This document shows, piece by piece, positions 845 through 56,970 of a stretch of DNA of 64,000 bases; positions within the stretch are counted from its first letter, which is position 1, and each line of letters starts with the position of its first letter. The position numbers and the translations under genes are program-made. Under the pieces are notes generated by a model. It saw only the letters and a list, made by a program, of their open reading frames with translations. It searched no databases and had not been told where the DNA came from. The stretch lies in the NCBI GenBank assembly GCA_008632985.1, contig QPGO01000009.1, positions 558,001 to 622,000 of the forward strand, given 5' to 3'. The stretch comes from Psammoneis japonica. Lineage: Eukaryota.

Positions 845-2414
845 CTAAGCCAGATTTTGACGCCTGCGGTAGTTCCTTCCATGGGTCCCTCCTTTCATAT
901 CGACGGGTTCTAACAATAGCCTTGGCTCAAAAATCGTGGCCTGCTTCCATAGTGCGCCCAACAGCTGTCATGTATCCTACCCAAAGTGCGAGCTACATAA
1001 ATAGATGAGATGCCGTCATACTGCCTGACGGTTACGGTACCGGTAAGCCTCTTTACCATCTCGCTCGCTCAGTGGGCACTTTAATGTCTTAACCATTGAA
1101 TCAACTAGTACATCGCCTACGTGGACATATCACCACACGCGACATCCTCCTTACTAGTGACTTCAATGTTCTTCGTTCAACGGAGATCGATTCAGATTTC
1201 TTCGATACTCCTCGTTCCTTTGTCAAGTCGGTTCCCCTGAGATTCCTGATTCCTAGGTCAGAGAATCGGTCTGTACACCGCTCCTTCTCATCCCTTCGAA
1301 CAGAAAGTCTCTTTCGAGTTTCGAACCTTCGACCTCTTTGACCTCACCGCCAATCGGAACTTTCAGCTGCGAAGACCTCGTCTTGCATCCGCTGTGTCAA
1401 GTAGCTATGTAGGTATCTCACCATGTCATGTATCCTACCCAAAGTGCGAGCTACATAAATAGATGAGATGCCGTCATACTGCCTGACGGTTACGGTGCCG
1501 GTAAGCCTCTTTACCATCTCGCTCGCTCAGTGGGCACTTTAATGTCTTAACCATTGAATCAACTAGTGCATCGCCTACGTGGACATGTCACCACACGCGA
1601 CAAACAGCAGCGAATCATGGCTACACAGTGCAGCTTTGAAATCATCTGGCAGAGGAGCGGTGATGCTGGGCAACCCATCCAACTCCAAACAGAGACAGTG
1701 GAGTCCGAGTCGATTCAACCCCAGTCGTTGCCGCCACCATCGATTGACTTTGGAATCTCCATGAGCAGTGTCACCAATCACAGGTTGTCCCATTCTTTGT
1801 GCGTGGCGGCGAATCTGATGTGTCCGTCCTCCCAATGCGGGTTCCACCAACACTGCACAAGACGAACCAAAAGTTTCACCATCCTTGCCAGTTGCAGCAC
1901 AATGAGATGAAATGACAGCAAACTTCGTCTTGGCTTCCTTTTCGATCCCATGAATGTTGAGTGGTGCATCAACGACGCAGAACGCTTCATCGTGACGCGA
2001 CCACCAATCGCCCCGCAAGATTGCAATGTGTTGTTTTCTCCCTCTCTTCAAAGCCGCATGCAATTCTCCGCAGGTTTCGGAGTCAAAGGCAAACAGCATC
2101 GCCCCGGAAGTTCTATGATCCAAACGATGAACTGGACAGACCTTGCGTGACAATTGACGCTTCACCAAACCAACCAGTGTGGCTTGCTTCTTTCTTCGCG
2201 TCATGCTGTTGCAGTGGACAGTGATGCCACTGGGTTTGTTGATGCACGTCCAATCATTTTCGCATCGTAAAATTGGAATTCTGGGGCGACTTGTCTTGGG
2301 CGGGGATGTCATTGTCATTGACCAGCAGCTCGAGAAGCAGCACAGCAAAAACAAAAACAGCAGCATGATGAGATCGTTCATCATTCCGCGCTTTGATGCT
2401 CCACCAGGAGGCAC
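845..2414 (-). pseudogene. RluA-family RNA pseudouridine synthase, disrupted by a TRIM insertion and TpA-mutated
   Basis: Motifs NKPSG, PVHRLDHRTSG, GRTHQIRRH, IGDTAHG. Removing the TRIM and one TSD restores the frame to ...LLLGALWKQATIFEPRLLLEPVDMKGGTHGRNYRRRQNLA* (TAG 845-847). The start is GTG here but ATG in the paralogue at 16638-16640. No Tyr right of the TRIM. Confidence 0.9.
966..1602 (-). mobile_element. TRIM (terminal-repeat retrotransposon in miniature), 637 bp
   Basis: Two 179-bp direct repeats 966-1144 and 1424-1602 (TG...CA), 6-bp TSD AACAGC (960-965, 1603-1608). Minus-strand PBS-like TGGTGAGATACCT abuts 1423; PPT TAAGGAGGA abuts 1145; 279-bp non-coding interior. Confidence 0.93.
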
Positions 2415-2629
2415 ACTTTTTCAGACCGAGCGAGAGGGATGTCGTCGTTTTCATGCCTCACACCCTCTACGAAGTTTCAACCTACACTGGGGCCTTGCAT
2501 CCGTGTGACTTCGATGAGGAGTGAGGCATGTACCGGCACCAACATGTTGTGTGTTTTGTTGGTTGTTACTTTACGGTGGGTTGCAGGTTGTGTGAGTGCA
2601 TGCATGGGAGGTGCACGCGCTCTTCTCAA

Positions 2630-5600
2630 TTGGTTCCTCCTTTGTGGTAGGAACTCTGGACACGAAGTGAGGAGGTGTGGAACCCGGGCTGGTTTGGATT
2701 GCCATGCGCGCGAGCATCAAATTTTAGAGCTTTGATCTTTACTTGCCACCAATCATTTTTTAAAAAATTCGCACGCTTAAATGATGGGTTCGCAATTGAT
2801 TAATGTGCGACGCAATTCTACATTGATGTTTTAACATTATGTCAAAAAATGGCGATTTAATTCTTGCATTCGTGTGTGGACATGTCATAAGAAGAGACGT
2901 GGGTTTCCCCTTTTTGATAATTCTGGTGTGATCGTTCTATGGCAGATGATAAGAGAACTGTCCTAACGTTGTGCATCACTGGTTGCTGAGTGTGTCTGTC
3001 ATTGCAATAATGTGCTGACATCGATTTGTTAGATTAGACCCTTTGTTTTCTATCGGTTGTTGCCGGGCACGCTTGCAAGCCCGCGTGTGAAGCCTGGAAC
3101 ATTTTCCAAAAGGTAGAAATAATTCCCACATGCAGCATCAAAATGTTCCATTTGTCAATTGGACTGCAAAATGTCATCACACTGTTCGTTGGTGAAGCAC
3201 GCGACACTTCTTCCTTCCATCAACTGGAGCAGGGCGTTGCACCCGTCCGGCAGTCTGCACAGACTTAAATCTCTCTTCAGCGGTTGCCGAAGATGCAGAC
3301 CATTTCTGGTCTTGACCCTGGAGAGCATGACACATGCCCAGTTTTGTGCACAGCTCCAGCTAGGTACAAACACATTGTCGACACCGCTTCCTTGAAGCTT
3401 GTGTCCTGTGGTTGCATTGTTTGTCATGAATGGCAATTGGGTTGCTTTCAGTCCGAGCGTGTGTTTCTCTTTTTCCTCAGCTGTCATCTGTTGGGTTGGG
3501 TCCTTTGAACAGGCTTTGAAAGTGGAAGACTTGGGCTTGAGCGAAAAGGTGGGTGGATCGATGCTTTTGTTGCCATGCTTGAGTTCTACATGATCCACCT
3601 GGGATGCCTGGCATTAGAATTGCGATGTTTGTGTTACATGTCAGCTTGGATCTGCTGATTGCAGGGCACGATGCATTCTGGAAAGCATCGCATTTTCTCC
3701 TCTTGGGGACAATTTCTTTGACGCATCTATGACGGAATGAGCCATCCCAAGAGAACCACTTAATTTTTGCNNNNNNNNNNNNNNNNNNNNNNNNNNNNNN
3801 NNNNNNNNNNNNNNNNNNNNNNNNNNNNNNNNNNNNNNNNNNNNNNNNNNNNNNNNNNNNNNNNNNNNNNNNNNNNNNNNNNNNNNNNNNNNNNNNNNNN
3901 NNNNNNNNNNNNNNNNNNNNNNNNNNNNNNNNNNNNNNNNNNNNNNNNNNNNNNNNNNNNNNNNNNNNNNNNNNNNNNNNNNNNNNNNNNNNNNNNNNNN
4001 NNNNNNNNNNNNNNNNNNNNNNNNNNNNNNNNNNNNNNNNNNNNNNNNNNNNNNNNNNNNNNNNNNNNNNNNNNNNNNNNNNNNNNNNNNNNNNNNNNNN
4101 NNNNNNNNNNNNNNNNNNNNNNNNNNNNNNNNNNNNNNNNNNNNNNNNNNNNNNNNNNNNNNNNNNNNNNNNNNNNNNNNNNNNNNNNNNNNNNNNNNNN
4201 NNNNNNNNNNNNNNNNNNNNNNNNNNNNNNNNNNNNNNNNNNNNNNNNNNNNNNNNNNNNNNNNNNNNNNNNNNNNNNNNNNNNNTCTGTGATGGACAGT
4301 CGAGTGTAATCCTCGCCACATGTCAACCCAGTTGTGCAGATCCGACTGGTCAGTTTGGATGGTGTTCTTTTACCATCACGCCTGAAATCTCTGTTGTCAG
4401 AATGCAGATTGTCTCTTGCTGTGTTTGTGTCTTCAAACCATGCCTGAATGTGACCGTGTGCCGAGAGTCTACCTTGTTCTTCCACTGCAGCTATGAAAGC
4501 GGAGGGTCTCCCCATGTAGAATTCAAAATCTTCTCTGGGTGAATTCCTTTTTAAGTCCCATCCTGTCACTTCTTCTATGACGATTTCCAATGACATTTCG
4601 AGTGCAAAAGCGGTGACACCCGGGTGCTCCACACGAAGCTCGTTTCTTGCCCCCAGCCTTTTCGGTCAATTCTTCATCCAACATTTCTGTCACATCTCTG
4701 CCTTTGTCGATGAGCATGTCCGCATAAATTTGAACTAAAAAGGAATTGGCATCATAGGGGCTTTGTCGTTGAAAATGCTCCAGGTTGTCCAAAGTGGTGT
4801 TGGCAGGTTTCAGCATTTCTTCTCATTTTTTTTGCTGCTTCATTTGCATGTGGAATAGATGCCAACACCACATCCACTGCACTTAAGAAACGATGTCCCA
4901 ATGCGCAATTCCTGCGTTCACCAGTCTGTCTGTCATGTGTGGCACGGTCGACGTCGTCTTGTGTCAGTTCATTTGAGAATTGTCTGGCTTGATTTTTGTC
5001 TCTTACTTTCCATCCAGCACTGTGCACCATTCGTTGCTTCACAGTCAGATTGCACAGGGTCAGAACAAAGAGTTGCTTGTGGAAATGGGGCTGAGAAATG
5101 CGGGCCAAGTGATCTGCGCAATGTGCCAGATTTGCACAGTCGGCGAGACTCCCGTCTTCTTTCATTCTTGTTTCATCAATGCCGCCATGCCCACAAGGAA
5201 ATTGCAGCAAGCAAGCATTTGCCAGGTTGTTGTCCTTAAAGTCACTGACTGATTCTTTCAAAAGATCAGCTTTGAATTCAATGTCAAAACCGCTTGCAGC
5301 TGCATCGTGCACCAAGTCTTTGAAGCTGTCTAAATTACGTTGTCCACCAGTTGTTGAAGAAACGGTGCCATCGGGGAAACAAACACTGCAGGACTCCGTG
5401 GTTTCAATGTTTGCATTTTCGCTTTCGTCCAAACTGCCATTGTCCACTAAAACTGGATTCTGCAAATCACTTCGCACTTCCTCTAGATCGATGTCTTGAT
5501 TCATCCAATTCTCGTGGTGATGGACAAGCCATTCTAGTGCTCTCATTACATGGTGAGTCCTGATTTTGTTCTTTTGTCTGGCCATTCGCCTTTGCTCTGG

Positions 5601-7099
5601 TGTCATTTTGCCGGACACCAACACAACCACATTTTGATGAAGGTTCAACACGTCAAAGTGCACAATGGTGCGGGCGATGCTCTTTACGCTCATCTTGTAA
5701 TGGGAAAGACTGCCTTGCAGTTTCTTCTGTTTGCCACCGACAAAACTGAAGCAGCAGCCACATGTTTTCACAGGTGTCAACAAAGCCAGTTCCACTTCGG
5801 TGAGACACGATAATTCAGGTGGTGGTGTTCCAAAACAGTGGTCATTTGCCATTGCGCACAGAGGCATGGAAGCAGTGCAGAGACTTCTTTTACAAGGCCT
5901 GCAACACGTGAATCCTTCAGACCTTCTGTTGTCGTTCGGAACAATGTGTCAAGCTCTTGGCGAAAGTGACAGGTCGGAAATCCATCGGCAATCCCGTGGA
6001 ATGTGGTCGTCATCGATGCGACAACAATCGTGCAGGTCTTCCGACACTTGGTTCCATTCAGATGGAGTTGACAGGTGTCTGGCTTCATTCAATCCATTGA
6101 CAGAAAGTCGAGCAGTCTGAGACGGTTTTGACAATCTGTCACACACCAAACAAACCCAAGGGATGCACTCGTTTCCATTCCTGCAACAAAGCTTCTCAAA
6201 ACATCTGTTTATGTTGTCTCGGTGCCTGGTGTTGCCATCATCCACAAGACAGCTTGCAACGGCAGGCTCACACTGCGCAAAGATGAGTTGAACCAACAAC
6301 GCAGCAATGGGTGCACGCCAGATGACACGACGACCCATGAGACTTGCAAAATGAGAACAATCGGAGTAAAGTCAATGTGATCAACAGATGGTGGACAATC
6401 CGACCTGCAACTGGTGTTCCCAGTCACTGCAGGGTCCACTTCCAGTGTTTTCTGGACTCAGCAGACGAGTGTGTGCAACAAATCTTCAGTGTGTCAAGAG
6501 CACAATGAACAACAATGAATGCGAAATGACAAATCTGCAGCCGGTGTTTCCCGGTCTCTGCAGACTCTGCGACCAGTGTGTTCTGGTCCCCACAGACATT
6601 GTCTCAGCTGCAACTGGCGATGCTTTGTGTCGAGATGGCTGGAGAGTCTTCCTTTGCAAAAGTTCAGATCTCATGAAAAATGAGGGTTGAAGCAAACTTC
6701 CGTGCATGATTGACGGACCCGACACGTTGTAGATCGCTCGTCTCGACCCACTTGACACGTCATCGTTCGCTCGTGCGTTCCACATTGGGGTGTGCTGCCA
6801 ACAGCAGTGGCATCACACCAGTGAGGTCATGAACGTCAGCGGGAACGATGTCTTGTGGAAGTTCAATGTGCGATGATGTGTCTCGCAGTTGAAGTCGGTT
6901 CCACCCACTACGACCATGCGACGTTTGCACGACTGTGACACCTCATGTCTCGATCTACTGCCAAGTGTAACAGATGTGTGCATGCCAGACACATGTTCTT
7001 GCTGACGTCGTACAGCATGTTTCAACGAATTCTACTGTACAAATCCTACTCATTATGTAACCGTGGCTGGATGTGAGGAACTGCTGGACAGCCATTGTA
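2630..7099 (-). mobile_element. Helitron-like rolling-circle transposon (degenerate Rep-helicase)
   Basis: HUH Rep motif VEEQGRLSAHGHIQAW (about 4440-4490); PIF1-helicase C-terminal motifs TGHKLQG and WACVMLSRVKTRNGL (3155-3598); N-terminal PPELSCLTEVELALL. Ends inferred from the empty site CTCAATTCAACGG at about 11952 and 16819; no TSD. Confidence 0.85.
3771..4285. other. assembly gap (N run) inside the Helitron
   Basis: 515 Ns. Confidence 1.
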
Positions 7100-7699
7100 T
7101 TCAACGGTCGACGGACGTTCCTACCATTTTTCATTTCTTTTCCTCAGGAATTAAAAAAAAAATCCCTAGTGAGATTCCGCCGCCGAAATCAAAATTTCAA
7201 AAAATGAAAAAAACCTTGAACACATAACATCAACGAGAGGAGTCTAGTCACCGAGACGCGAATAAAAAGCGAATCCGCAATCATCATCCACGTCAACCAA
7301 TCGCGGGAACAAAATACCCATTATTTTATTCTTTTCGAGTCCAAGAACGAGGCGCTTTTTCATTCTACAAAGTAAATCGATTGTCCAATCAGTTGAGACA
7401 TACATTTAGTACCTTATTAGTTTTCAAAAAGGTGAGTGATGGGAATAGTAGCGATTGCAAGAGTCACCTGCCTTGAGTCGGACGAAAACTGAGTTGTTCG
7501 TGAGCGGTCGGAAGAAAGCAATAGTGGTTCTATAGCGTCAAGTGAGATGTTGCTCTGCACCGTCCATGGAAGAACCAAAAGTCTACATTGTGAACACAGG
7601 CATCGCTCGGATTTGTTGGTTGCTTAGCCTAATTCTTCGTTTGGTTGCTTTTTTGTGCTCCTTGCTCCCAGAGATTTTTTTCCAGTAACAGCTAAGAAT

Positions 7700-8845
7700 A
7701 TGACTACTTCAAAGTTTCGGATTGTTCAAGTATGGATTGCTATGATTTTCTTCCTCGGGGCGATTCACTGGCATTTTCTGGATAACGTTAATGACCTTGT
7801 TGCGCAGGCGGAACAGCATGAGAAAGAAGAATCAAAAGAAATTTGTGCCGGTTGGGATACAAACATGGATGCATGGTGGACTCACCATCCCGACTACGAA
7901 GTCTCACACGAGAACGAGACTGGCTATTGCTTCTCACCCATAACGGACAAGAGAAAGGCTAAATTCTTTCGCCATCTTTACCAAGTTCAATACAAAAGCA
8001 ATTGCTCCAATGCGCGAACAATAAATATGGCGTCGAATGGCTGGGGTGCAACCTTCAATATGGTCGACGAGGGCCTTCTCTACGCATACGAAAATAACCA
8101 GCCAATCGCAGTATATCCAACCAAGGGACGGTGGCACTATGCCGCTAAAAAGGATGCTAGCAAGCCTGTTTGTAAACGCAAGGACATGTCGTGCTACTTT
8201 CTCAATGTAACATCCTGTCAAGCTAATCCAAACAAGATTGAAAACCTAAAACCCAAGGGGGACTTCACGGTGAATTCACACCATGGCCGTTGGAGTTACG
8301 AATATGCCACACGTGGTCAAACTTGGTTGAGACGAGAAGTGTACAAAATGACGGCCTCGACAAAGCTTGTTACGCCGTGCACTGTCATGCACGTTCGTCG
8401 GACAGATGTTCTGCTAGAGGGGAAAGAAAGAGGGAAGCACCGTAAATACCATGATATCACGGAGTATGTCCAGGGGGCTGGGAAGAACCTGACGGATAAT
8501 ATCTTTCTTCTCACGGACGATCAAGATGCCATAGAGGAAGCGACAACGGAGTTTCCTCAGTACAACTGGATGTTTCTGAATCGACCTCGAAACAGGGGAA
8601 TAGAGGGCGGTTTTGAAGGACATATCCCCTCCGACGATCCAAAGTTTGAGGTCGTAGTCATTCTCGCCACTCTTCTGTTAGTGAAGCATTGTGAGACGTT
8701 TGTATACGCAAGAAGCAGGTTCGCTACACAAATTCGAAGTAGCATGCCTGGTGCCAAGATGATCTATCTCGACGAGGGCAAGCAAATTTATTTCGATAAC
8801 TCTGTAAATGAGACTGCGATCCAGACAAAGTCACATCCTGGGTAG
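7700..8845 (+). CDS. GT23/FUT8-like alpha-fucosyltransferase, copy 1
   Basis: N-terminal TM anchor, MHVRRTD (FUT8 motif I VHVRRTD) and IFLLTDD; intact ORF, first ATG at 7700. Confidence 0.8.
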   Translation: MTTSKFRIVQVWIAMIFFLGAIHWHFLDNVNDLVAQAEQHEKEESKEICAGWDTNMDAWWTHHPDYEVSHENETGYCFSPITDKRKAKFFRHLYQVQYKSNCSNARTINMASNGWGATFNMVDEGLLYAYENNQPIAVYPTKGRWHYAAKKDASKPVCKRKDMSCYFLNVTSCQANPNKIENLKPKGDFTVNSHHGRWSYEYATRGQTWLRREVYKMTASTKLVTPCTVMHVRRTDVLLEGKERGKHRKYHDITEYVQGAGKNLTDNIFLLTDDQDAIEEATTEFPQYNWMFLNRPRNRGIEGGFEGHIPSDDPKFEVVVILATLLLVKHCETFVYARSRFATQIRSSMPGAKMIYLDEGKQIYFDNSVNETAIQTKSHPG

Positions 8846-9449
8846 TACTCGGTAACAGTATTCGGGTGCATTTCCCACACTACTCTAGAGTGAATTTAGA
8901 TAGATTTACCATACGGTACAATGTACTTCTCTAGAGAATTGCTCATGAAAGAATTGGACCTCATCGTTTGGAATCGTCTGGTCTCGCCACTGCGGACTCT
9001 TTTTTGAAAATTTGACAAGACAGTACAAATGCAGCAGATTGGACCTAGCAAACAGAAAGGCAAGTACAATTCAAAACACCCGATGAACCAAACTGACTGC
9101 GACTGCAGATGAGAGGGCTGCAAGCCAACGAAGACAGGGCATTGAACCAGATCGTGTCCGCATCATCCTCAGTCAGAGCTGACAGAGCCGCGGGAACAAG
9201 GAACCGGCCATCGCTAACATGGGTCCCCACCATCGACAACTTCCACATCGGAGACAGAGTGAGGATCATCAACACACTGTGATGCCAGCATTCGGCAGAA
9301 AGTCAGCAACCCAACAGGACTGCGTTGGTGCCGTGACCAAGACAACTGCTCATCTGAGAGCCCCAAACAATGTGGGGTTCCTGTCAGACTAAAAATGTCA
9401 GAGCCAAGACTGGACACAGCACCCAGAACCACTGACCGCACACCAGAGA

Positions 9450-10560
9450 AACTTTGTCCAATCAGAGCCATGGGGGAAGGAAGCAACGAAAGCAAGAGGG
9501 TGGCAAATTCACGTGCGATGCATCAGCCAACAAGGACACATTCATGAAGACGACTGGGATCATCACCGAGTCCATTGGATGGGAGTGTGATGATGCTGGA
9601 GAGTTCTGCACTGGGGCGGTTGCCCTCAGACTGAATGGTCTCATTCTTGTCCTGCTTGACCCTGACCCAGTGGCCGGAACAGCTGTCCTGAAAAATGGAA
9701 AAACTTGTGCACAAGACCCATCAGCCAAAGCCTTTGCATTGACACTGAGACAGTGTTCCCAGGCACTGCGCAACTGTGTGGAGGCCCATGAAGATTGGGT
9801 GGCTGCCAACAAGAACTCCAACATTGTCGAACTGCTTCAGATCATCTGAGCCTTCATGATGCAGCATCAGACAAGGAGACATCCTGTGCATGCCATCATT
9901 GAGGCAGAGTTGGAGGTGCTGCTGTTCAAGCAAGGATGGCTCATGTTTGCCAGCAACTGCTTTGAGTGATTCAAAGATTCCGCAGGGATGGCGGAACATC
10001 TTGGGGGCAACATTGGATGCCAGCAGTTCCAAGCAGTGGCAAGGCTTGCTTTGATGGTGGTTGATGCCAATGTTCCCACCAACAAGGAGTGGGTCCAAGC
10101 CAGGCAGAAGTGCATGACAAACACCTGGGCATGCTCTTCCTGCCAAACAGCAACAAGTGCAGGTTTGGCAACCTCATCTGTGACCTGAGAAATTGAGAAA
10201 ACAAGTGCACCAGGGGGACAGACAAGCACCCCGTCACACTCAATGCAGCACACAATTTCCTGGTCAACTGCCAAGCACCACATCACCCTGGGACACACAG
10301 CACAGACCAACATGAGATGGCTTTCCTTGCTGATGGTGATTGCCCTGGGCAAGGACGTCACCAGGACGTGGGGGTGGACACATGCCCGGGGACAAAGCCC
10401 AGGATGTGGATGAGGTTGAGGAGGCCACAGTGACCCACTGTGCCGCATGACTGCTGACACCAACAACCCGCCAGCGGATCAGGATGCAGCAGAGCCTGAG
10501 GTGAAGGACAATCAAGGTGCAATCAAAGTGGGATGCAGTTCTCACCAGACAGTTCCTGTG
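9450..10560 (+). mobile_element. Ty1/copia (CoDi-type) gag remnant
   Basis: ESIGWECDDAGEFCTG, QCSQALRNCVEAHEDW..SNIVELLQII and ENKCTRGTDKHPVTLNAAHNFLVNC resemble diatom Copia gag motifs with Y>C/H; frameshifts and stops. Confidence 0.65.
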
Positions 10561-11444
10561 ACCCCGAGAAGTTTGTTGATGGGCACTCATGCACGCTCCA
10601 GCAGAGCCAGCCTGAAACCTTCTGTTGGATGCCCATTTCAATCATTTGCTGCCACAACATGATTCGTGGCTCTTCACAACAGGTGCAAATGAAATGCTTT
10701 GCAACAGTCTGGGAAGCACATGCCATGCCCATCTTGCAGTTGATGCCATTGCAGCTGTGACAGCCAAAACAATGCTCTGTTTGTCCTGAAACCTTCTGTC
10801 GGGCACCCATTTTGATTGTTTGACACCACAACAATGTGCGCGGCTCTTGCTTTGATTGATGTGCACATGATGCTTTGCAATGGTCTTCAGCAGGAAGCAC
10901 ATGCCATGCACAAATGTGCCATTTGTGGGCTGCAGCACAGGTTGACGAGCACATGGAAAGTGGTGACATGATTGCCCAAACAAGGGACACAGATCCAAAA
11001 TCAATGGATTCTCTTCCACCCTCCTTTGCATTGCTCCAAAGGCAAGAAATCATTGCCACAATGATGATCAGTGTGCCAAAGTTGTTTGGAAAAGTGCCTT
11101 GAGTGACTCTGCTTGCAGTGCTGCACCTTCCACTTGGCTTCCAAATCTTTGGCAATCTTTGCCATGTTGCCAGTGGGATGGCAGGTGAAATGCAGATGCG
11201 CAAAGTGACCAAGAAAAATGAGATGTTGTAAGACGGGTTTCCAAGAAAAGGTCAAGCAGCTCTTCCATGATTTTCCCATTTCAGCATTCTTGTGTAGACT
11301 CCACAGGGTGCTAAACACATTGACAATAAGATCTGATGCAAGTCAACTCAAGAACCAAACAATGCTGATGCTGCCTCAATGGCTTGGCATCCACCTTGAC
11401 CCAAATTCGGCATCATGGGATGGATGGCATGGCCCATGAGCAAA

Positions 11445-11775
11445 TCAAAGGCAAACAGCATGGCCCCAGAAGTTCCATGATCCAAACATTGCACTAAATG
11501 GACTTTGCACGACAATTGGTGCTTCATCAAACCAACCAGCATGGCTTGCATTTTGTGCTTCGAGTTGTGTTGTTGCAGTGCTCGACAGCCACGCCGCTGC
11601 TTGGTTTGTTGACACACGTCCAATCATTTTCACAATGTAAAATTGGAACTCTGGGGCAAGTTGTCTTGGACAGAAGCATCATTGACCAGCAGCATGAGAA
11701 GCAGCACGGCAAAAATTGCAAAAGCAGCATGATGAAATCGTTCATCATTCCGGGCTTTGATGCTCTCAGGCATGC
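11445..11775 (-). pseudogene. 5' fragment of the RluA pseudouridine synthase, copy 2
   Basis: Aligns to 2082-2414 (CENDWTCVNKPS, VQCLDHGTSGAMLFAFD); truncated and frameshifted. Confidence 0.85.
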
Positions 11776-12553
11776 TTTTTCAGACCAAGAGGAATGTCAT
11801 GGTTTTCATGCCTCACACCCTCTGTGAAGTTTCAACCTACACTGGGGCCTAATGTCCGTGTGACTTCGATGAGTGAGGCCCTTGCACATCCAAAACATGA
11901 TGTTTATGACACCGGCACAAATGTTGTGTGAGTGTGAGGTGCACGCATCTTCTCAATTCAACGGTCGACGTTCCTGCCATTTTTCCTTTATTTTCCTCAG
12001 GAATGTATACAGTAATATGAATATACAATATTAGTACTCGTGGAACAAAAAATGCAGAAATCAAAATTTCAAAAAATGAAAAAAACCGTCAACGCATCAA
12101 CGACACGACACGAATGAAAAGCGAATCAACCTCTATGTATGATACTGTAGCAACCAATCGCGGTAACAAAATACCCATTATTTTATTCTTTTCGAGTCCA
12201 AGAACGAGGCGCTTTCTCATTCTACAAAGTAAATCGATTGTCCAATCAGCTCAGAGTTACATTTAGTACCTTATAGGTTTTCAAAAAGGTGAGTGATGGG
12301 AATAGCAGCGATTGCAAGAGTCACCTGTCTTGAATCGGACGAAAACTGCGTTGTTCGTGAGCGGTCGGAAGAAAGCAATAGTGTCATAGCGTCAAGTGAG
12401 ATGGTTGCTCTGCACCGTCCGTGGAAGAACCAAAAGTCTACCTTGTGAACACAGGCATCGCTCGGGTTTGTTGGTTGCTTAGCCTAATTCTTCGTTTGGT
12501 TGCTTTTTGTGCTCCTTGCTCCCAGAGAATTTTTTTCAGCAACCGCTAAGAAT

Positions 12554-13708
12554 ATGACTGCTTCAAAGTTTCGGATTGTTCAAGTATGGATTGCTATGAT
12601 TTTCTTCCTCGGGGCGATTCACTGGCATTTTCTGGATAATAATGGATTCGTTAATGACCTTGTTGCGCAGGCGGAACAGCATGAGAAAGAAGAATCAAAA
12701 GAAATTTGTGCCGGTTGGGATACAAACATGGATGCATGGTGGACTCACCATCCCGACTACGAAGTCTCACACGAGAACGAGACTGGCTATTGCTTCTCAC
12801 TCATAACGGACAAGAGAAAGGCTGAATTCTTTCGCCATCTTTACCAAGTTCAATACAAAAGCAATTGCTCCAATGCGCGAACAGTAAAAATGGAGTCGAA
12901 CGGCTGGGGTGCAACCTTCAATATGGTCGACGAGGGCCTTCTCTACGCATACGAAAATAACCAGCCAATCGCAGTATATCCAACCAAGGGACGATGGCAC
13001 TATGCTGCCAAAAAGGATGCTAGCAAGCCTGTTTGTAAACGCAAGGACATGTCGTGCTACTTTCTCAATGTAACATCCTGTCAAGCTAATCCAAACAAGA
13101 TTGAAAACCTAAAACCCAAGGGGGACTTTACGGTGAATTCACACCATGGCCGTTGGAGTTACGAATATGCCACACGTGGTCAAACTTGGTTGAGACGAGA
13201 AGTGTACAAAATGACGGCCTCGACAAAGCTTGTTACGCCGTGCACTGTCATGCACGTTCGTCGGACAGATGTTCTGCTAGAGGGGAAAGAAAGAGGGAAG
13301 CACCGTAAATACCATGATATCACGGAGTATGTCCAGGGGGCTGGGAAGAACCTGACGGATAATATCTTTCTTCTCACGGACGATCAAAATGCCATAGAGG
13401 AAGCGACAACGGAGTTTCCTCAGTACAACTGGATGTTTCTGAATCGACCTCGAAACAGGGGAATAGAGGGCGGTTTTGAAGGACATATTCCCTCCGACGA
13501 TCCAAAGTTTGAGGTCGTAGTCATTCTCGCCACTCTTCTGTTAGTGAAGCATTGTGAGACGTTTGTATACGCAAGAAGCAGGTTCGCTACACAAATTCGA
13601 AGTAGCATGCCTGGTGCCAAGATGATCTATCTCGACGAGGGCAAGCAAATTTATTTCGATAACTCTGTAAATGAGACTGCGATCCAGACAAAGTCACATC
13701 CTGGGTAG
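12554..13708 (+). CDS. GT23/FUT8-like alpha-fucosyltransferase, copy 2
   Basis: Near-identical to copy 1, with a 9-bp in-frame insertion (NGF); intact. Confidence 0.8.
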   Translation: MTASKFRIVQVWIAMIFFLGAIHWHFLDNNGFVNDLVAQAEQHEKEESKEICAGWDTNMDAWWTHHPDYEVSHENETGYCFSLITDKRKAEFFRHLYQVQYKSNCSNARTVKMESNGWGATFNMVDEGLLYAYENNQPIAVYPTKGRWHYAAKKDASKPVCKRKDMSCYFLNVTSCQANPNKIENLKPKGDFTVNSHHGRWSYEYATRGQTWLRREVYKMTASTKLVTPCTVMHVRRTDVLLEGKERGKHRKYHDITEYVQGAGKNLTDNIFLLTDDQNAIEEATTEFPQYNWMFLNRPRNRGIEGGFEGHIPSDDPKFEVVVILATLLLVKHCETFVYARSRFATQIRSSMPGAKMIYLDEGKQIYFDNSVNETAIQTKSHPG

Positions 13709-36000: not shown

Positions 36001-36089
36001 ACATGCACACCAAATGCACTGGCTGAGTCTGCATTTGCTGAGTGGGTTGGCCCAATTGTGGCATCTTTGCACTCTTGATTTGGGAAGCT

Positions 36090-44979: not shown

Positions 44980-45890
44980 AGGCTTCATTCCCATTGACAG
45001 CCAACAATGAGTTGCAAACTTGAACTGCTTTGGCAAGGAACTGAGAAACCAGATTGTTTTTGCTGTCCCAGAAAGAGCTTGCAGAAAAACAACAAGCTCA
45101 CAGTTTTGAGCTCTGCTTCACGCTTGCAATGTGAAATGAATGATGAAGCACCAGACTGGCACCAAAGCAAAATGTGTTTGTCATGCAAGATCATGTTGCC
45201 ATGTGCCTGCAAAAGCATTTTTCAACTCAAGAAGGATCCCAAAATGCAACATCTCAAAGGTGCTCTGAAACTGAGCCGGGAGCTTGGTTTCCTCCAGCAC
45301 AATGGCTTGTGTGAACAAGAACTCTCAACTCTGTGACTCAGTGTGACAGAGCTTTTTTTTTTTGATTGGTGTGGCTCTGAAGCCATGCCAGCTAATTGGA
45401 GATGATTTGCTTGACACGAGGCTTCATTCCCATTGACAGCCAACAATGAGTTGCAAACTTGAGCTGCTTTGGCAAGGAACTGAGAGACCAGATTGTTTTT
45501 GCTGTCCCAGAAAGGGCTTGCAGAAAAACAACAAGCTTGCAGTTCTGAGTTCTGCCTCATGCATGCAATGTGAAATGAACAACAAAACACCGGACTGGGG
45601 CAAAAGCATTTCTTCAACACAAGGATCCCAAAATGCAACACCAAAGGTGCTGTGAAGCTGAGCCGGAAGCTTGGTTTCCTCCAGCACAGTGGCTTTTGTG
45701 GACAAGAATTGTTGACTCTGTCATTCAGTGTGACAGAGGTGCTGTGAAGCTGAGCCAGAAGCTTGGTTTTCTCCAGCACAATGGCTTTTGTGGACAAGAA
45801 TTGTCAACTCTGTCATTCAGTGTGACAGAGCTTTTTTCCCATTTATGTGGCTCTGAAGCCATGCCAGCTGATTGGAGATGATTTGCTTGC
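44980..45890. repeat. tandem duplication of about 440 bp with a nested about 90-bp duplication
   Basis: GAGGCTTCATTCCCATTGACAGCCAACAATGAGTTGCAAACTTGA at 44980 and 45418; GGTGCTGTGAAGCTGAGCC at 45646 and 45738. Confidence 0.85.
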
Positions 45891-46874
45891 CAGAAGGTTC
45901 AAAGCTTCCAAAAGCCACCCGCACCACCTCAACAATTGACAAAAAGCTCCAGGTCACAACAGATGTGCACACCATTTTGCATTGCAAAGGAGACAGCCAC
46001 AACACTGCCACACATCCCTCTTGCTTTGTGGCTGATGACCACCTCCAAGCCCTCAAAGTGCATGTGTGCCAGCTGGAAGCAGGGCTGCAATGATGAACAA
46101 GTGCAAGTGGGTGTGTGGCAAAAACTGCTGGCACTCCAGAGAAACTGAGTTTGGCACTTGGACCAGGTCAGCAAATGCAACTTGAAGGCAGCTGTGGCTG
46201 GGAACAACAAAGAGTCAACCCCTCATTTCTTGTTGTTGTTTGCTGATGTTCTCATGGGAGAGTGTTCTTGTGTTCTGAGAAAGTGGTGCTCCCCACCACA
46301 ATTTCTCTTCAATGCAAGTTCAGCCCACTGCACCTTCAAACGGCCACCATGTCAAAATCTCACTGAGGTCTGTCAGGTTTTTGGCACACCCAAGGTCTCA
46401 ACTCACCTGCTGATGAATGACATGACAAGAAGCAAGACTGCTGTCTGCACCACCTTGCACAGCATTGCCAGAGAAGTTGTGCAGTTGAGACAGATGCAAG
46501 GAAACTGCCTTGTGCTCAGAAGTTGTGTTGCACCCAGTGTCTCTTCTGTCATGTTGCGCCAAAGTTCTGGAAGAGTGCCAGCTTTGCACATTTTGTCATG
46601 GTCTTTGAGGGCATGACATGGAGTGGTTCTCAAGGCAAAACAGTCCCTGCAGAAGGCAGAACTGTCAACAGCATTGTGCCACATCAATTTGCTGGGTGCC
46701 GTGGCTCACAACAACAGAGTTGAAGCTGAAACAATCCACCCTTCTTGCTGCTTGGTGCAAAAGACTCAAAAACATGGAGACCATCATGCCAGAAAAGTGC
46801 TTGTGTCTCTTTTGGCCAAGAGTTGCTGACATCTGAAAAGGAGCTTTGGTGCTTCTTGGAACAGAAAACTTGAA

Positions 46875-47853
46875 CAGGCACAACTGGAAAATGTTGTGGC
46901 TCTTGTTCAGAATTCAGAGTTGTGTGTTCACAATCATTGACAAAGGGAGTTCACTGATTGTTGGAACCTTCCAAGTGGGGTTTGACAGTCAATGTAAATC
47001 AGTTGGTGCATCACAAACACACTTCTTGACAATTTTTTGTGTCTGCTTGTTTCAACATTCTTTTCATGTCTGTCCACAATTAAACTGACTTTCCAAGCAG
47101 GAAACAACAGTTGATGAAACTTGTCACTTGCATTTGTTTCTGTCTTGCAGTGACAACCATGTGTTTGCAACAACTTTCTTGACATTGTTCATTTCTGACA
47201 ATGACGATGTTCAATTGTCTTGTCAACCTGATTGTGCATCGGCTGTGCACTGCTCATCATCTGATTTGCAAATGTCCCATTTTGTCATTTCTGTGCTGCG
47301 CACCAAACAACGCTCCATTTTTCCCGTTCTTGTTTTTCTCCTGCATTTCACCAGTTCCTGTTGTCCTCAGTCCCTGCACAATGGGTGCAATGTTTTGGTC
47401 CTTGTGACCTCCCTTGCAACCACTCTTGCTCTCTCCACAATCATCTGCAGCAGGCAACTGCATCATCCTGCAACAATCTGTCTTGCATTCCTTCTGTTTG
47501 GCAGGCCAAAGTGTTGCCTGCAACAAGAGAAAACTTTGTGCCAATGATTGAGTTTTGTGCATGTCTTGTTTTTCTTGCAATCTCTCATCTCGTGCACTGC
47601 TTCTGCTCACCTTTGTGCCCTTTCCCATTGCCCACATGCCATTGCAGGTCAGGTCACATGTCTGGATGTCTGCACGCAAAGCTGTGCATGGGTGTCAGTT
47701 GTTTTCATTGTGCACCCAATCTCCATGCACTTGCCACTTGTTTTTCTCACCTTGTGTCTTGTGTCCTGCATTTGTTCCATCCCATCCACAATGCCACTGC
47801 CTTCCCCACTGCTCTCATTGTCAGATGTTGGATGCGACCAGAGCTTGCATTTT
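46875..47853 (-). repeat. about 1-kb degenerate element, inverted copy of 38135-39115
   Basis: Colinear reverse-complement similarity to 38135-39115. Confidence 0.85.
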
Positions 47854-47856
47854 TAA

Positions 47857-48485
47857 AACTTGGCATGCCAGCAACTTTGGGGCAAAAATCAGCATGCCAA
47901 CTTTGGGGCAAAAGTCTGCACACTGACTTTAGGTTGAAACTTGGCACACAAATTTTGGGGCAGAACTTGGCCCACCAACTTTGGAACAAAACTTGGCATG
48001 CCAACATTGGGGCAAACTTGGCATGCCAACGTTGCAGCAAAACTTGGCGTGCCAACTTTGGGAAAAACTCAGCACGCCAACTTTGGGGCACAACTTGGCA
48101 CACAGAGTTTCAAAGCAAAACTTGGCATGCCAACTTTGCAGCAAAACTTGACATGCCAACTTTGGGGCAAAATGTGGCATGCCAACTTTGGGGCACACTT
48201 GGCATGCCAACTTTGCAGCGAAACTCGGCATGCCAACTTTGGGGCAAAAACTGGCACGCCACTTTGGGGCGAAACTCGGCATGCCAACCTCAGGGCAAAA
48301 CTTGGCATGCCAACTTTGGGACAACAAAAGTTGGCATGCCAAGTTTGGGTTGTTTTGACCCAAAGTTGGCATGCCAAGTTTGCCCCAAAATTGTCATGCC
48401 AAGTTTTGTCTTTGAGCTGGCATGCCAAGTTTTGCCCCAAAGTTGGCATGATTTTGCTGCAAAGTTGGCACAGCCCACCAAGTTT
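47857..48485. repeat. TTGGCATGCCAA satellite with an orientation switch at about 48325
   Basis: AAACTTGGCATGCCAACTTTGGGGC units, followed by inverted units; same family as 32765-33085. Confidence 0.88.
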
Positions 48486-49640
48486 TGTCCCTTGGATCAA
48501 GATTGTAAATGCAAAATTTGCAGGCTGATCATGATCATGCATTGCATGTGTTTTCCCACCATTTCCATTGAGCGCTCTGCGTGGCTGTCAACAAAAATTG
48601 CACCTGCATTTCAAAATTCTCAAATCAAAAGGAAGCTTGTTCTCAACCAAAAATGCAGCATGCTTCTCTGCCACTGCCTGAGCAATGAAGCCCAAGAGAA
48701 TGTGCCTCATGGCTTGTGCCATGTCTGCTTGTTCATGATTGTTTGCACCCAGCACAGCCAAGATCTTGCTGTTCTTGTTGTTTTGTGCATGTGAGCACAT
48801 TGCGTGTCATCGCAGGCATCGTCACATGCACATCAATCAACAGTGCCTCCTCTGCCATGCTCTCCTTCCTTGGTCACTTCTGACCCATCCTCATCAGATC
48901 TGGCTGCATTGGCTGAGAGCCCCAAGGCAGCCAAGGGATTGCAAAGGCAACACAGAACAATCTCAAGTCTTGATGTTTCAACATTCAACACTGAAATGTG
49001 GCCCCACCCCTCCGCTGAACACAGAACCTTCAAGTGATTGTGACACATGAATTTGTTCTGTGGAATTCTGCAAAATAGACAGCAATCATTGCTCAACAAA
49101 AACGTTAGATTTTGCACCCAATCAAACTGCCAAGCGAGCTCACAAGGGTGCTTTTGTGCGCACTGCGCTCATTCACTCAACCCAGCGCACCCCGAGATGA
49201 TGGGGATTGCTCCTCACAGGTTTGGACTCATGTTGTTTTATGTTGTTGAGGATGCTCGAAGCAGGCATGGGGAACAAAGGCAAGAGCTGTGGGGAAAAAC
49301 AGTGTTACAGTTGATACACGCGAAAGCAAATTGAGCTGCGATCTCTCTCTAGCTAGCCAGAGTAGAGAGAGTGGAAATGCGGGGATTGTTTGTTGTTTTT
49401 CGAAATTATTGATTTTGGAATTTCAATATAACATACATTGCGGCATATCCGAAAATGATATGATACCCTTTTGGCTATGTAGGCGCTGGTATGTTTCGCT
49501 GCGTAGATAGAAGTAGAATACCGGTAGCATCATTGGTGGCAGACAACGACGAAGCAAGATCGTGCCCCGCCCTCGTGTCGTCGAGTGTCGAGAGATGCGA
49601 GAGTACCTCACAACACCAAACATCATCAAGCCGGTCAACC

Positions 49641-53550: not shown

Positions 53551-54375
53551 GCCCCCCGCCCCCGTTGTCTACGAAGTCTCACAATGCCTCTTTTATCAAA
53601 GCATCGCGGACTTTGGGATTGCTTGTCTTTGTAACCTTTGCTGGCTTCAGGATGGCCACTCTGTTGAGCGATCGTGGTATACTACTTACTAAAATCGAGT
53701 TTAGTATCGAAGAGAGACATGACGAGGTGTGAAAGCTAGTCATCGGCCCGCGCGGTGTAGACTCAGGTGTATGGTGTGCAAGTATTGTGTAGAAGTATTC
53801 TGNCCACTTTCACCCCAGATTGTCAAAATGTGTAAAACACCCCTGTTTTGTAAAACGCCCTAGTAACAAGCAGCGGCTTGGGTCGTCATGGTGCTTTCGA
53901 CAGTCGAGTCGAGCAGTTTTTGGTGTTTGCGCATTCAAATCGCGCGCACTGACAGTGAATGTTCACTTCCGGGTTCCTTTTGGTTTGGGTTCGCCATCAA
54001 AAATGACCAACGACAGACCGACGACAGACCGACGAATGCTCGAAAAAGCCTGCTACGTAGGATCCTACCGGTACGTAAGATATAGGATAATGAGCCAAAA
54101 TGTGTGTTTTACACGACGAAGCACGTGTTTTACAGAATAACACGTGATTTTACGATCCCCCCCCTCCCCCCCCTTCACCGCGAAGGTTGCGCCCAATGCG
54201 TGAGATCAATTCAGCGCGCCCCTGTGTGGACACCGCCAAGTCCTTTTGCGGTTTTGACGGACAATTTAGAACAGAAGCAGACAGACTGTGCCTCTCACTA
54301 AAGTGCGTTGTCTTACAACAGAATTCAATTTGCTCTGTTCGATTCATCAACCCATGGAGGCATCGCATGATTGCT

Positions 54376-56970
54376 TCAGCTTCCGATGCCAGACTGCACA
54401 GCCAAGGGGTGTTCCCTCAGTGGGACAGAAGATGGTGTCGACAGATTCTGTGTTGCTCTCACAGTCTTGACATGCCAAAGAAAAGACAGGAAGCATGGAG
54501 GAAGAATCTTCGACAAAAATCGCCGGCCCATGCTGCTCAGCAAGGCAGCGAGCAATGGGTGCGTGGCTTGATTTGCAGGCTTTGTGGAGAGGGAGCTCAC
54601 CACGTTGGTCCCTTGCGGCCAAAGCAGAAGGGTTTCTCTCCACCAAACGCATGGTTGCATGCCGCGACAAGCCAGTTTCTGCTGCCACATGCAACGGCGT
54701 ACAACCATTTTCATCAAGAGTAGAAATGGCTCTAGTGTCGAATAGGATTTCCACGGTTTTAGAGAACGCATACCTCTGGCATGCAACATGCAGTGGCGTC
54801 CGCCCTTTGTTGTCAACGATACCCAAACCTTCACAGTACAATGCAACCAAGTCGGTTACAACATAACGTTGAACAAGGCTCGGATTCTCAAGCGCGACGT
54901 GCACTGGAAGTTGTCCAAAATTGTTCTTCTTTTTAGCAGCCTGTGGATTCAACTTCAAAAGCTTTTCAAACAGAGACTGATGCCGAGAATTAAGCAGAGA
55001 ATGCCGCTGCACTGACTTGACAGCAAGATGCAATGCAAATTGTCCACACACGTCAATGTCATCCACGTGCTCTGGAAAACTCACGACAAACCACAAAGCA
55101 GTGGCTTCCTTGTCTCGAAGGCAAGAATCCTTCAAGATAGAATGTAATGGCAAAGCGTTTCTGTCGTGGCGTTCAAATGCAAGACATGTTCAAACGAGCG
55201 CCTGTGTGCTGGCCACTGGGCGCACTCCAAAGGTGGGCCACGAAAAGGATGAGACATGTTGAGCGATTCTGGATAAATCGAGATGAGACATTTGACAGCT
55301 TCAAGATCCACCGATGACGTGTTGAAACAGGTCGCGAGAAAGGTGTGAATGGGCAGTCCGTGATGCGAGCTGAACACACGTGCAGCCTCTGGCCACCGGT
55401 CTACGAGCCATTTCAAGAGACGAATGAGGCTTTGACTTTGAAGCATGTCGAGTCGTTTCTTCCGTCGATGAGCTGCCATGTGAAGAGGCACTTGTCCCAA
55501 ACAATCTGAAGCTTTGATTCCGTCAGGCAGCTTTTCGTACAGATGGTCGAGAACGTCTTCTGAAACATTGGCGTTCTGGCATGCTGTGTGTAAAGGCAGC
55601 TCACCCATTCCATTCCTGGCACAAATGGCTGGAGGAAATGCTTCGAACAGCTTGGCGCACAAAAACAGGCCTTCATCACCACAACGGCAGACGCAATGAA
55701 GTGGTAGATCGCCTCTGCAATTGATTTTTTGAAGCCCTGAAGGGTGCTTTTCAATGAGGAACTCAATGACTTCCATTGACTCATCGTGTGCTGCATGATG
55801 TGTCGACAGAGCACCATTCGTTGACTTTGGGGAAACTGCCTCGGGATGCTCCTTGTGAAGGAGCTCTGTCGATTCAACTTTGCCCCCATGACAAGCCAAA
55901 AACAAGGGGGTCTTTCCGTCATCATCGAGAGCTCGAACTGAGTCAGGGCATCGGTCGATCAAGATTTTCACCGCTTCTGTGTTCTTTGCTGCTGCAAGGG
56001 CAAGAGGAAGTTTCCCACCGAAACCTTTACATTGAACCGCCTGTGGATGGCTTGAAAGCAAAAATTCCAACACACGAGGGTCGAGGTTGAACTGTCTTGA
56101 GCAATGAAGGTGGAGTGGGAGCTCTCCGCGCAACGCACGTTCCGAAATCACATCCTGTCTCTTCTGGACAAACAAGCGGAGGAAATCGACGGAAATGCTT
56201 CGGTTTGCACAAGCTGTCTGAAATGCTGTAGAGCCCAAATCATCGCGCGCTGCAAGCACCTCCTGAGGACTGGCATTAATAAGAAACTTGACAACATCAA
56301 TCGGTGGCAACGTTGTTCGATCTGATGACACCATTTCATGAATGGGAAGACGACCGTCAGTGTTTGTGAGCTCAGAAAGAACTCTGCGTTCACCATCGAT
56401 AAGAAGCTGAAGGATTTCGACTGAAGGATTGTCCTGGCAAATGAGAACGTCAAACGGGGTACTCTCGAACTCGTTAGCTTGATTTGCAAGCGCTGGACGG
56501 TGCTGATCAACGAGCATCCTGACGAGCTCCACATCCACATGGTGCATCCTCTTCATCAGGCAATGAAGCGGCAACCCATCTTCTTGATTCGATGCTTCCA
56601 GAGATTCTCGATGCTGAGATATGAGAAAGTGTATCACGGGGCTCGGGCAATGATCGTTTGGGCATGCCAGGTGCACTGGCAGGTTGCTCGCGTCTCCGTC
56701 GGCGCACCGCCGCAGTGCCACGTCCGCCGGGAGTAACTCCGCGACACACTTGACAATGTCACATGTTACATTCTTGTTTCTGCAGACGACATGAAGAAGT
56801 GTTTCGGTGCCGTAAAGTTGTTCTTGAATGATCTCCTTGGGACACGCTTCAATTTTCTCACGAAGCAGATCCAACGAGAGATGTTCTCCGCAACAGAGCT
56901 GCCCCAGTTCTTCGAATGCCTCCATGTCCGGTTTTAGCTCCGTCCTCCATAAGTCTGTACTCGATTCCAT
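54376..56970 (-). pseudogene. ankyrin-repeat protein, frameshifted and partly TpA-mutated
   Basis: Many G.LPLH.AC / G.TPLH repeats; ATG (MESSTDLW) at 56970; frameshifts near 55200 and 54430; expected YP.A repeat ends often read HP/CP. Confidence 0.8.

Follow-up and report, generated by a model that had tools for sequence, protein, structure and literature searches.

In full-text literature searches, the sole report of a hypermutation that removes the dinucleotide TpA was a preprint on the chlorarachniophyte Bigelowiella natans, and no report of such a process in diatoms was found. According to the main text of that preprint, 231 of the 302 nuclear mutations recorded in B. natans mutation-accumulation lines fell in two hypermutable regions, an integrated nucleocytoplasmic large DNA virus (NCLDV) and a virophage; A>G and T>C made up 230 of them, the GC-biased ones being stated to lie all on TpA, and the rate, approximately 6e-7 per site per generation, was elevated about 1000-fold (Mettrop et al., bioRxiv 10.64898/2026.01.13.699255). 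The same source counts 124 TpA-depleted clusters in the B. natans genome and proposes an ADAT2-like adenine deaminase as the agent, noting in its Discussion that ADAT and TadA substrates have U or T directly 5' of the edited A and that ADAR favours a 5' U (bioRxiv 10.64898/2026.01.13.699255). We describe here the same signature in a diatom, in a stretch of 64,000 nucleotides from Psammoneis japonica (GenBank assembly GCA_008632985.1, contig QPGO01000009.1, positions 558,001 to 622,000 of the forward strand), which is called the window and whose first nucleotide is position 1 of the coordinates given below.

A second system with which the window can be compared is repeat-induced point mutation (RIP), known from fungi such as Neurospora, which is likewise a hypermutation confined to segments, consists of transitions only, depends on a dinucleotide context and destroys the coding capacity of transposons. 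The original prediction for this DNA, made from its letters without database searches, had claimed a RIP-like defence of opposite polarity, in which transposons and neighbouring genes suffer TpA>TpG/CpA changes within restricted domains. The novelty that it implied is reduced by the B. natans work, where the same TpA signature had already been measured directly (bioRxiv 10.64898/2026.01.13.699255). On the evidence set out below, we consider it probable that a targeted process changes TpA to TpG or CpA (A:T>G:C), in place and site by site, within sharply bounded, repeat-rich domains of diatom nuclear DNA that are probably methylated and silent. The responsible enzyme may be recruited to a chromatin state and would then work in genome defence, in the same way as the TpA hypermutation of B. 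natans.

Depleted domains occupy about 56% of the window; their edges are sharp, and the genes between them have normal TpA. In 1-kb sliding windows, the observed/expected ratio (o/e) of TpA is 0.00-0.15 in the large blocks, where TpG and CpA reach about 1.8-2.1, whereas intervening and flanking genes show TpA o/e of 0.5-0.85. The observation is confirmed as real and far beyond chance: the longest runs without a single TA measure 1,839, 1,837 and 1,749 bp, and the probability of such a run at normal TA frequency is of the order of e^-80. Borders were taken from a 300-bp segmentation, and pooled dinucleotide counts were then made for each class of DNA. The list of domains rich in transposable elements (TEs) given in the original prediction was reproduced nearly exactly by the 1-kb windows and the segmentation.

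By segmentation, two depleted blocks lie at 1.7-2.45 kb and 3.2-3.65 kb. They are followed by a domain at 4650-6850 that is mainly TpA-depleted and keeps most of its CpG (TA o/e 0.10-0.40, CpG o/e 0.61-1.08 in 1-kb windows). Both TpA and CpG are depleted at 9100-11850 (TA o/e 0.00-0.14, CpG o/e 0.18-0.40), which harbours the TA-free run of 1,839 bp and is the first copy of a tandem duplication; at 13950-16700, the second copy, 98.1% identical to the first; at 19200-20600, as seen both in the windows and in the segmentation; at 22650-41200, the largest domain, consisting mostly of DNA without identifiable content apart from two protein-domain fragments; and at 43950-49200, which holds one copy of an inverted repeat (46937-47740) and tandem repeats at 47.85-48.35 kb. 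Finally, an ankyrin-repeat gene on the minus strand is partly TpA-depleted in its body and towards its 3' end (54300-56300), where CpG is kept. One of the borders lies about 90 bp past the stop codon of a FUT8-like gene, and another inside the ankyrin gene.

The pooled counts account for the missing TpA. Normal DNA (24.3 kb) contains 1,098 TA (frequency 0.0452, o/e 0.64), with CpG o/e 1.06, a TG+CA frequency of 0.1397 and a summed frequency of pyrimidine-purine (YpR) steps of 0.2425. In domains depleted of TA only (5.4 kb), there are 52 TA (frequency 0.0096, o/e 0.15), CpG o/e is 0.73, TG+CA 0.1900 and the YpR sum 0.2437; in domains depleted of both TA and CG, referred to as saturated (30.7 kb), 114 TA remain (frequency 0.0037, o/e 0.06), CpG o/e is 0.17, TG+CA 0.2303 (o/e 1.84 for TG and 1.85 for CA) and the YpR sum 0.2441. 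The gain in TG+CA therefore matches the combined loss of TA and CG in both classes (0.0503 vs 0.0491 in the TA-only and 0.0906 vs 0.0891 in the saturated domains), and the constancy of the YpR sum over the three classes implies that TA and CG were converted to TG or CA, by transitions only. The two products were formed equally (3,541 TG vs 3,532 CA), the other A-containing steps are not depleted (o/e 1.20-1.24 for AA, 0.87 for AT and 0.95-1.08 for GA), and GC content is 0.484-0.491 inside the domains vs 0.467 in normal DNA. A general bias from A:T to G:C, such as biased gene conversion, was ruled out by the YpR balance, the intact A-containing steps and the equality of TG and CA. The comparison of TpA and CpG that the original prediction proposed thus gives TpA o/e of 0.06-0.15 in the domains against 0.64 in normal DNA.

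Decay of CpG, as expected from deamination of 5-methylcytosine (5mC), shares these domains, being strong in five and weak in two of them. It is not, however, the sole cause of the pattern: in the TA-only domains the rise of TG+CA is 0.0503, against a fall of 0.0356 for TA and only 0.0135 for CpG, so that the loss of CpG is too small for the gain. In these domains TA has dropped to 21% and CpG to 77% of the normal frequency, the loss of TpA running about sixfold ahead of that of CpG; in the saturated domains the values are 8% and 17%, and the leftover TA is mostly in the resistant contexts described below. The earlier claim that the process is distinct from 5mC decay is borne out by the two domains that have lost TpA with CpG o/e at about 0.73. 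Both classes would fit one time course with TpA decaying about six times as fast as CpG, and separate targeting would be equally possible. The domains appear to behave as methylated DNA, as judged from CpG decay that continued after the tandem duplication. In the range 9100-49200, the survival of CpG itself varies with the flanking bases: it is 0.075 in TCGA and 0.09 in ACGA vs 0.41 in CCGG and 0.43 in GCGC, A/T flanks decaying fastest.

The direction of change was read from proteins. A remnant of a Helitron Rep/helicase gene lies on the minus strand at 3167-6212 (Pfam DUF6570 and Helitron_like_N; tblastn with the protein P0121) and covers amino acids 11-626, 820-875 and 1720-1864 of a homologue of 1,866 aa, so that it carries an internal deletion. 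An assembly gap at 3767-4309 (about 516 N) adjoins this apparent deletion (homologue aa 875-1720), part of which could be an assembly problem. The remnant was aligned with 24 full-length homologues selected from 59 matches, short and hypermutated ones being excluded, and a column was taken as conserved Tyr when at least 70% of the homologues had Tyr. At the 14 such columns in the window element, the residue is Cys in nine, His in two, and Phe, Pro and Tyr in one each. Cys or His is thus found in 11/14 columns vs 2/315 in controls (23 homologues, leave-one-out; Fisher p=2.7e-16), and 11 of the 13 changed columns are transitions. The reverse was not seen: Cys persists at 8 of the 10 columns where it is conserved and His at 8 of 9, and none of these columns has turned into Tyr. 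Taking all in-codon replacements of the TA type together (Y>C/H, I>M/T, L>S/P, V>A), they make up 17 of 58 differences in the window element vs 14 of 728 in the controls. The peptide WACVMLSR, which the original prediction had quoted from this helicase, is present at 3317-3340(-). A polarized spectrum at the DNA level was not obtained, the closest Helitron loci being only about 66% identical to the window element; with no closer DNA relatives, the polarity rests on the protein columns.

A fragment of an RluA/TruC-type pseudouridine synthase gene on the minus strand (1602-2450, open reading frame (ORF) 1575-2414; PF00849, E=1.8e-17) lies next to the Helitron, downstream of its Rep ORF, is TpA-depleted and includes a TA-free run at 1622-2114. 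Its ORF contains no Tyr in 279 aa, as had been noted earlier. In an alignment with 25 orthologues, picked among the best 120 of 495 matches, both invariant Tyr columns (Tyr in 25/25 orthologues) read otherwise in the fragment, one as Cys (ILQY>ILRC) and one as His (KxYIA>KQHIA). The two peptides that the original prediction had offered as Tyr losses do exist (KVCPVHRLD at 2118-2144(-), GDTAHG at 1758-1775(-)), but the column in the first is mostly Phe, and no Tyr column is involved in the second. The best named relatives among the matches listed are from the diatoms Amphora, Seminavis, Nitzschia, Cylindrotheca, Ditylum and Corethron, at 40-53% identity. The ORF is truncated at its C-terminus, the conserved C-terminal region being absent, and duplicates of its 5' part, 81% identical, lie at 11445-11877 and 16307-16744; it is therefore a gene fragment in repeat DNA rather than an intact neighbouring host gene. 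The Helitron may have captured it; on inspection of the sequence, neither such capture nor the Helitron termini were established. Next to this fragment, a 179-bp direct repeat (966-1144 and 1424-1602, 98.3% identity) has its second copy ending exactly at the start of the RluA fragment and of the first TA-depleted block, and may mark a rearrangement or insertion junction.

The ankyrin-repeat gene (ORFs 54347-55153 and 55132-57180, minus strand; Pfam Ank families) has normal TpA at its 5' end (56.9-57.2 kb). Its relatives are too distant for a test of columns (21-29% identity at best), and Tyr content was compared instead: amino acids 124-547, a stretch of 424 aa, contain no Tyr, vs 2.69% in 23 distant homologues (p=1.6e-5). 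The claim that genes neighbouring the transposons are hit as well is not supported by the RluA sequence, which is a fragment and not an intact host gene; the ankyrin gene is the only host gene that seems to have suffered collateral damage.

Repeated segments show that the changes arose in place. An inverted pair of repeats, copy A at 38229-39025 (+) and copy B at 46937-47740, shares 83.7% identity, and 28 of the 46 adjacent double differences between the copies are CA in one and TG in the other; an equally diverged pair from normal DNA, used as the control, has none among its 23. Such a flip arises when the two copies resolve an ancestral TA or CG differently, one to TG and one to CA; the 28 flips therefore indicate that the process ran independently in each copy after the duplication. 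No strand-coordinated clustering of the flips was found (15 runs over 28 flips, p=0.76), which matches many single events and not one processive burst. Taken together, the Tyr columns, the YpR balance and the CA|TG flips show that the directional, domain-restricted TpA>TpG/CpA (A:T>G:C) process that had been predicted is real.

Since the two copies of the tandem duplication both lack TA, depletion predates this duplication; among the later substitutions in this domain, about 11 of about 27 are CpG<>TpG/CpA (as read from the list of differences). Beside these domains lies a triplicated unit of 1.8 kb with 96.6-98% identity (array 7294-18765), carrying a gene for a FUT8-like glycosyltransferase (match to PF19745 that stays under the curated threshold) whose copy 1 is at 7655-8845 (+) and copies 2 and 3 at 12500-13708 and 17334-18530. 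It served as an unaffected control: TpA is normal (TA o/e 0.5-0.77), and Tyr makes up 4.5-4.8% of the proteins. Of 57 changes polarized by majority rule, 4 were TA>TG/CA, 10 were TG/CA>TA and 20 were transversions. The first two repeat units carry a TA-free block, so that the array was formed after that block had been hypermutated. If 'RIP-like' is taken to mean repeat-induced, the term does not hold here, given that a triplicated 1.8-kb gene keeps normal TpA and shows 4 changes of the relevant kind against 10 in reverse; the gene may have remained untouched because the process was idle after the duplication.

The survival of TA depends on the bases that flank it. Measured against its level in normal DNA, survival in the saturated domains is 0.72 for TTAA, 0.25 for CTAA/TTAG, 0.13 for GTAA/TTAC and 0.07 for both ATAA/TTAT and CTAG, while the remaining contexts are at or below 0.04, with ATAC and GTAC at 0. 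The order is similar in the TA-only domains, where TTAA is the most resistant and ATAT and ATAC are the most sensitive contexts. Expressed for the strand of the adenine, the preference is TAC >= TAT > TAG >> TAA, with TTAA largely spared, and an additive half-site model reproduces by calculation most of the mixed contexts. A forward model of tetranucleotides was less uniform: in the TA-only class it reached r 0.80 vs 0.76 for no change, whereas in the saturated class it was worse than no change (0.59 vs 0.67).

The same signature was found in sequences from other sources. Among the 59 Helitron protein matches, the public sequences P0134 (866 aa) and P0155 (1,355 aa) contain no Tyr at all, and P0145 has 1.0%; Cys or His is read at 9/9, 20/23 and 12/17 of their conserved Tyr columns, respectively. 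No metagenome DNA was found for P0134. At the DNA level, the metagenomic Helitron L007, one of 80 loci, has TA o/e 0.03, CpG o/e 0.30 and TG/CA o/e 1.70 over 7.8 kb, with an uninterrupted frame of 1,858 aa in which 26 of 34 Tyr columns read Cys or His; its closest Helitron loci are about 70% identical. In this frame the near-invariant Rep motif GQYxFKY reads GQCNFKH, both Tyr being lost; we take these to be the catalytic Tyr of HUH Y2 enzymes. The flanking rule recurs as well, 11 of the 13 surviving TA in L007 being NTAA/TTAN vs 42% in unmutated reference Helitron loci. When the window and L007 are pooled, there are 29 Tyr>Cys and 8 Tyr>His changes, an excess of Cys that the rule leads one to expect, and the share of His according to the base before the Tyr codon is 3/7 for G, 2/7 for A, 3/17 for C and 0/6 for T, an order (G > A > C > T) as the rule predicts. 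Two further loci, L031 and L032, have low TA without an excess of TG/CA and were not counted.

It should be noted that several points weigh against a TpA-specific process aimed at transposons. The CA|TG flips mix TA and CG origins, and no given TG or CA within the five saturated domains can be traced to TA rather than to CG. The test of Tyr contexts comprises only 37 sites, and the flanking rule cannot separate an attack on adenine (T-A-Y) from an attack on thymine on the other strand (R-T-A). A recognizable TE domain is lacking from most of the depleted DNA, so that targeting of transposons rests on one Helitron and on repeat-like read depth. The reads used to check the assembly come from a public run that is probably of the source sample and hence not independent. 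Lastly, a metagenome contig of 4,289 bp (L041) has TA o/e 0.18 and CpG o/e 0.06, and its surviving TA shows no bias to TAA/TTAA. It was not counted as an occurrence, the context rule being absent; not every low-TA Helitron reflects TpA hypermutation, and L041 may represent another balance of the two processes or another host.

As for mechanism, TpA would become TpG or CpA through an A:T>G:C transition on either strand, brought about by an enzyme that attacks the A of 5'-TAB-3' and, to judge from the CpG decay and the positions of the borders, may be recruited to silent chromatin. The most likely chemistry, which we put forward tentatively, would be that of a TadA/ADAT2-type adenine deaminase acting on DNA, converting A to inosine (I), which is read as G. 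A deaminase is favoured because T at position -1 fits the substrates of ADAT and TadA and because the extreme purity of transitions fits deamination; in the present DNA, the fit specific to such an enzyme consists of the T at -1 and the preference for TAC and TAT only. The UAC in tRNA-Arg offers a comparison. Such a process might serve genome defence, of the same kind as TpA hypermutation in B. natans. Its effect on coding sequences would be peculiar: TA>TG/CA cannot create a new stop codon, since TAA>TGA stays a stop while TAG>TGG/CAG and TAA>CAA remove one, so that frames stay open and Tyr becomes Cys or His.

The alternative that survives best, although unlikely in our judgement, is that a modification targeted to the domains and placed at the palindromic TpA miscodes during replication and yields T>C or A>G, e.g. 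5-hydroxymethyluracil (5hmU) made by a TET/JBP-type enzyme, or N6-methyladenine losing its amino group. TpA is palindromic like CpG, and a symmetric, maintained modification would explain the equal yields of TG and CA as well as the additive behaviour of the half-sites; the context rule can be read equally well as R-T-A on the strand of the thymine. In dinoflagellate DNA, 5hmU is enriched at TpA. However, no evidence of such a modification in diatoms turned up, and the purity reported for B. natans in the preprint's main text (230 of 231 mutations A:T>G:C) sits better with deamination than with a modified base that miscodes weakly.

Error-prone repair coupled to 5mC is a poorer candidate, and we regard it as improbable. 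Here, repair of T:G mismatches would recruit an enzyme like polymerase eta, as in the second phase of somatic hypermutation. Polymerase eta makes WA>WG errors. The sharing of domains by the TpA and CpG losses, and the continuation of CpG decay after the tandem duplication, would suit such a coupling. Against it stand the intact AA step (o/e 1.20-1.24), the rarity of transversions (transitions account for 11/13 of the changed Tyr columns, and the YpR sum is kept) and the lead of TpA loss over CpG loss in the TA-only domains. In addition, all but one of the 231 mutations in the hypermutable regions of B. natans are A>G or T>C, and these are reported in the main text as lying on TpA throughout.

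Still less probable is an artefact, arising from base calling or polishing at modified bases, or else foreign DNA that is natively poor in TA. Modified bases do cause systematic consensus errors in long reads, and the only reads found stem from the probable source sample. Nevertheless, contigs assembled by k-mers from the public run reproduce the TA-free sequence at 25.4-34.6 kb with 0-1 differences per contig at about 60-80x depth, and the signature is present also in the unrelated public sequences L007, P0134 and P0155. Variants in the read contigs have no clear TA-centred pattern. A natively TA-poor origin is opposed by the conserved Tyr columns that now read Cys or His, which imply a TA-containing ancestor, and by borders that cut through a gene. 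The least probable alternative, A-to-I editing of transposon transcripts by an ADAR-like enzyme, fixed by reverse transcription and reinsertion, can invoke the 5' U preference cited in the Discussion of the B. natans preprint, but the only identified element is a DNA transposon, no reverse transcriptase or integrase was found in 386 domain ORFs, whole domains with sharp positional edges are hit including part of the host-like ankyrin gene, both strands are hit equally and the copies diverged in place.

The remaining content of the window bears on what the domains are made of. A Pfam search of the 386 stop-to-stop ORFs of at least 55 aa in the domains gave Helitron, ankyrin, LRR_6 (25276-25530, minus strand) and TPR (26957-27196, minus strand) matches and three sub-threshold matches only. 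The leucine-rich-repeat and ankyrin sequences named by the original prediction were thus recovered, whereas its Copia gag was not, nor was any other Copia sequence, reverse transcriptase or integrase found among these ORFs; TE domains may be hidden by heavy mutation in the saturated domains. Its description of the targets as transposons accordingly stands for the Helitron, which is recognizable, and not for most of the depleted DNA, which has no Pfam identity. As regards repetitiveness, the segment 32.7-38.7 kb is multi-copy in the genome, with a summed contig depth of 860-2,840 vs about 60-110 in the adjacent single-copy part. Open frames are no guide to genes in this DNA: 136 of the 202 stop-to-stop ORFs of at least 100 aa in the window were assigned to the domains, where long spurious ORFs occur in all six frames.

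Three further features were observed. A CA-rich tandem repeat at 25900-26650, in which an ORF reads like a repeat of HPPSAI, has a summed contig depth of about 4,300 vs about 70 for single-copy DNA and many alternative joints, and is probably a high-copy satellite. Short tandem repeats with units of about 26 bp lie at 47850-48350 and 32770-33080; they are mutually inverted, 73-80% identical and both within depleted domains. An intact makorin-like gene for a CCCH/RING zinc-finger protein (21039-21977), with normal TpA and 4.2% Tyr, occupies a 2-kb gap between two depleted domains, and its position shows how tightly a gene can be bracketed by them.

Compared with known systems, the process is opposite to RIP in its direction, as had been predicted: RIP changes C to T mainly at CpA and raises TpA, whereas here TpA is removed, CpA and TpG are doubled and GC is higher. 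RIP creates stop codons, which the process here cannot do, and is triggered by duplication, whereas here a triplicated gene is untouched and the B. natans target, according to the main text of the preprint, is single-copy. Deamination of 5mC resembles it in acting on a palindromic YpR step, in its TpG and CpA products and in the domains affected (CpG o/e 0.17); however, it cannot remove TpA, which is lost here with CpG o/e at 0.73 and ahead of CpG. The likeness to TadA, ADAT2-3 and ADAR lies in the conversion of A to I, read as G, and in the U or T on the 5' side. Hypermutation by APOBEC3 is an established restriction of mobile DNA. All of these deaminases act on RNA or on single-stranded replication intermediates, unlike the domain-wide change of DNA seen here, and we know of no DNA adenine deaminase guided by chromatin domains.

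The findings extend TpA hypermutation from one chlorarachniophyte to a second algal lineage, which is ecologically dominant, and to unrelated environmental sequences; this makes a conserved, dedicated mechanism more likely. As a conjecture that we hold with some reserve, diatoms and chlorarachniophytes, and perhaps much of the SAR group (stramenopiles, alveolates and Rhizaria), might share a defence enzyme recruited to silent chromatin that rewrites 5'-TAB-3', and best TAY, to TGB on either strand, several-fold faster than 5mC decays. It would kill mobile elements through loss of Tyr, including the catalytic Tyr of HUH/Rep proteins, and through destruction of TA-rich signals, without ever creating a stop. 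If true, it would represent the first case in nature of a DNA adenine base editor guided by chromatin, and a natural adenine editor of DNA that acts on chromatin would be of interest to biotechnology. A route to the enzyme is offered by phylogenetic profiling of genomes with and without the signature, for which the order TAC>=TAT>TAG>>TAA with TTAA spared provides a fingerprint. The logic of transposon inactivation would also be a different one, Tyr being ablated while reading frames stay open. In addition, there is a warning for annotation, because gene predictors and TE annotators will mis-handle hypermutated DNA full of spurious ORFs.

The comparison with B. natans is the closest. The two features that characterize it, the purity of A>G/T>C changes and the restriction to TpA, were both found here. 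In the main text of the preprint, as in the window, the target is TpA, the products on both strands are TpG and CpA, and the change is GC-ward, against the usual mutation bias; it is regional and leaves clusters poor in TpA and rich in CpA+TpG. In B. natans the regions hit are not host-like. Confinement to foreign or mobile DNA may apply here too, the edges being sharp and flanking genes having TA o/e of 0.5-0.85, yet only a Helitron was identified, most domain DNA gave no Pfam match and the host-like ankyrin gene is partly hit. The differences begin with the host, a diatom (stramenopile) vs a chlorarachniophyte, and with the targets, which are a Helitron, repeats without identity and part of an ankyrin gene here vs the NCLDV and virophage described in the B. 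natans preprint. Depletion is saturated here (o/e 0.06, TA-free kilobases) vs mild in B. natans as reported there (Rho 0.45). Decay of CpG co-occurs here, whereas the word CpG is absent from the preprint's main text; a flank rule applies here, whereas none is described in that main text, from which the words diatom and flanking are also absent. The process in P. japonica is thus of the same kind as that of B. natans, in a second lineage, and differs in its saturation, its Helitron and repeat target, its coupling in space to CpG decay and its flank rule.

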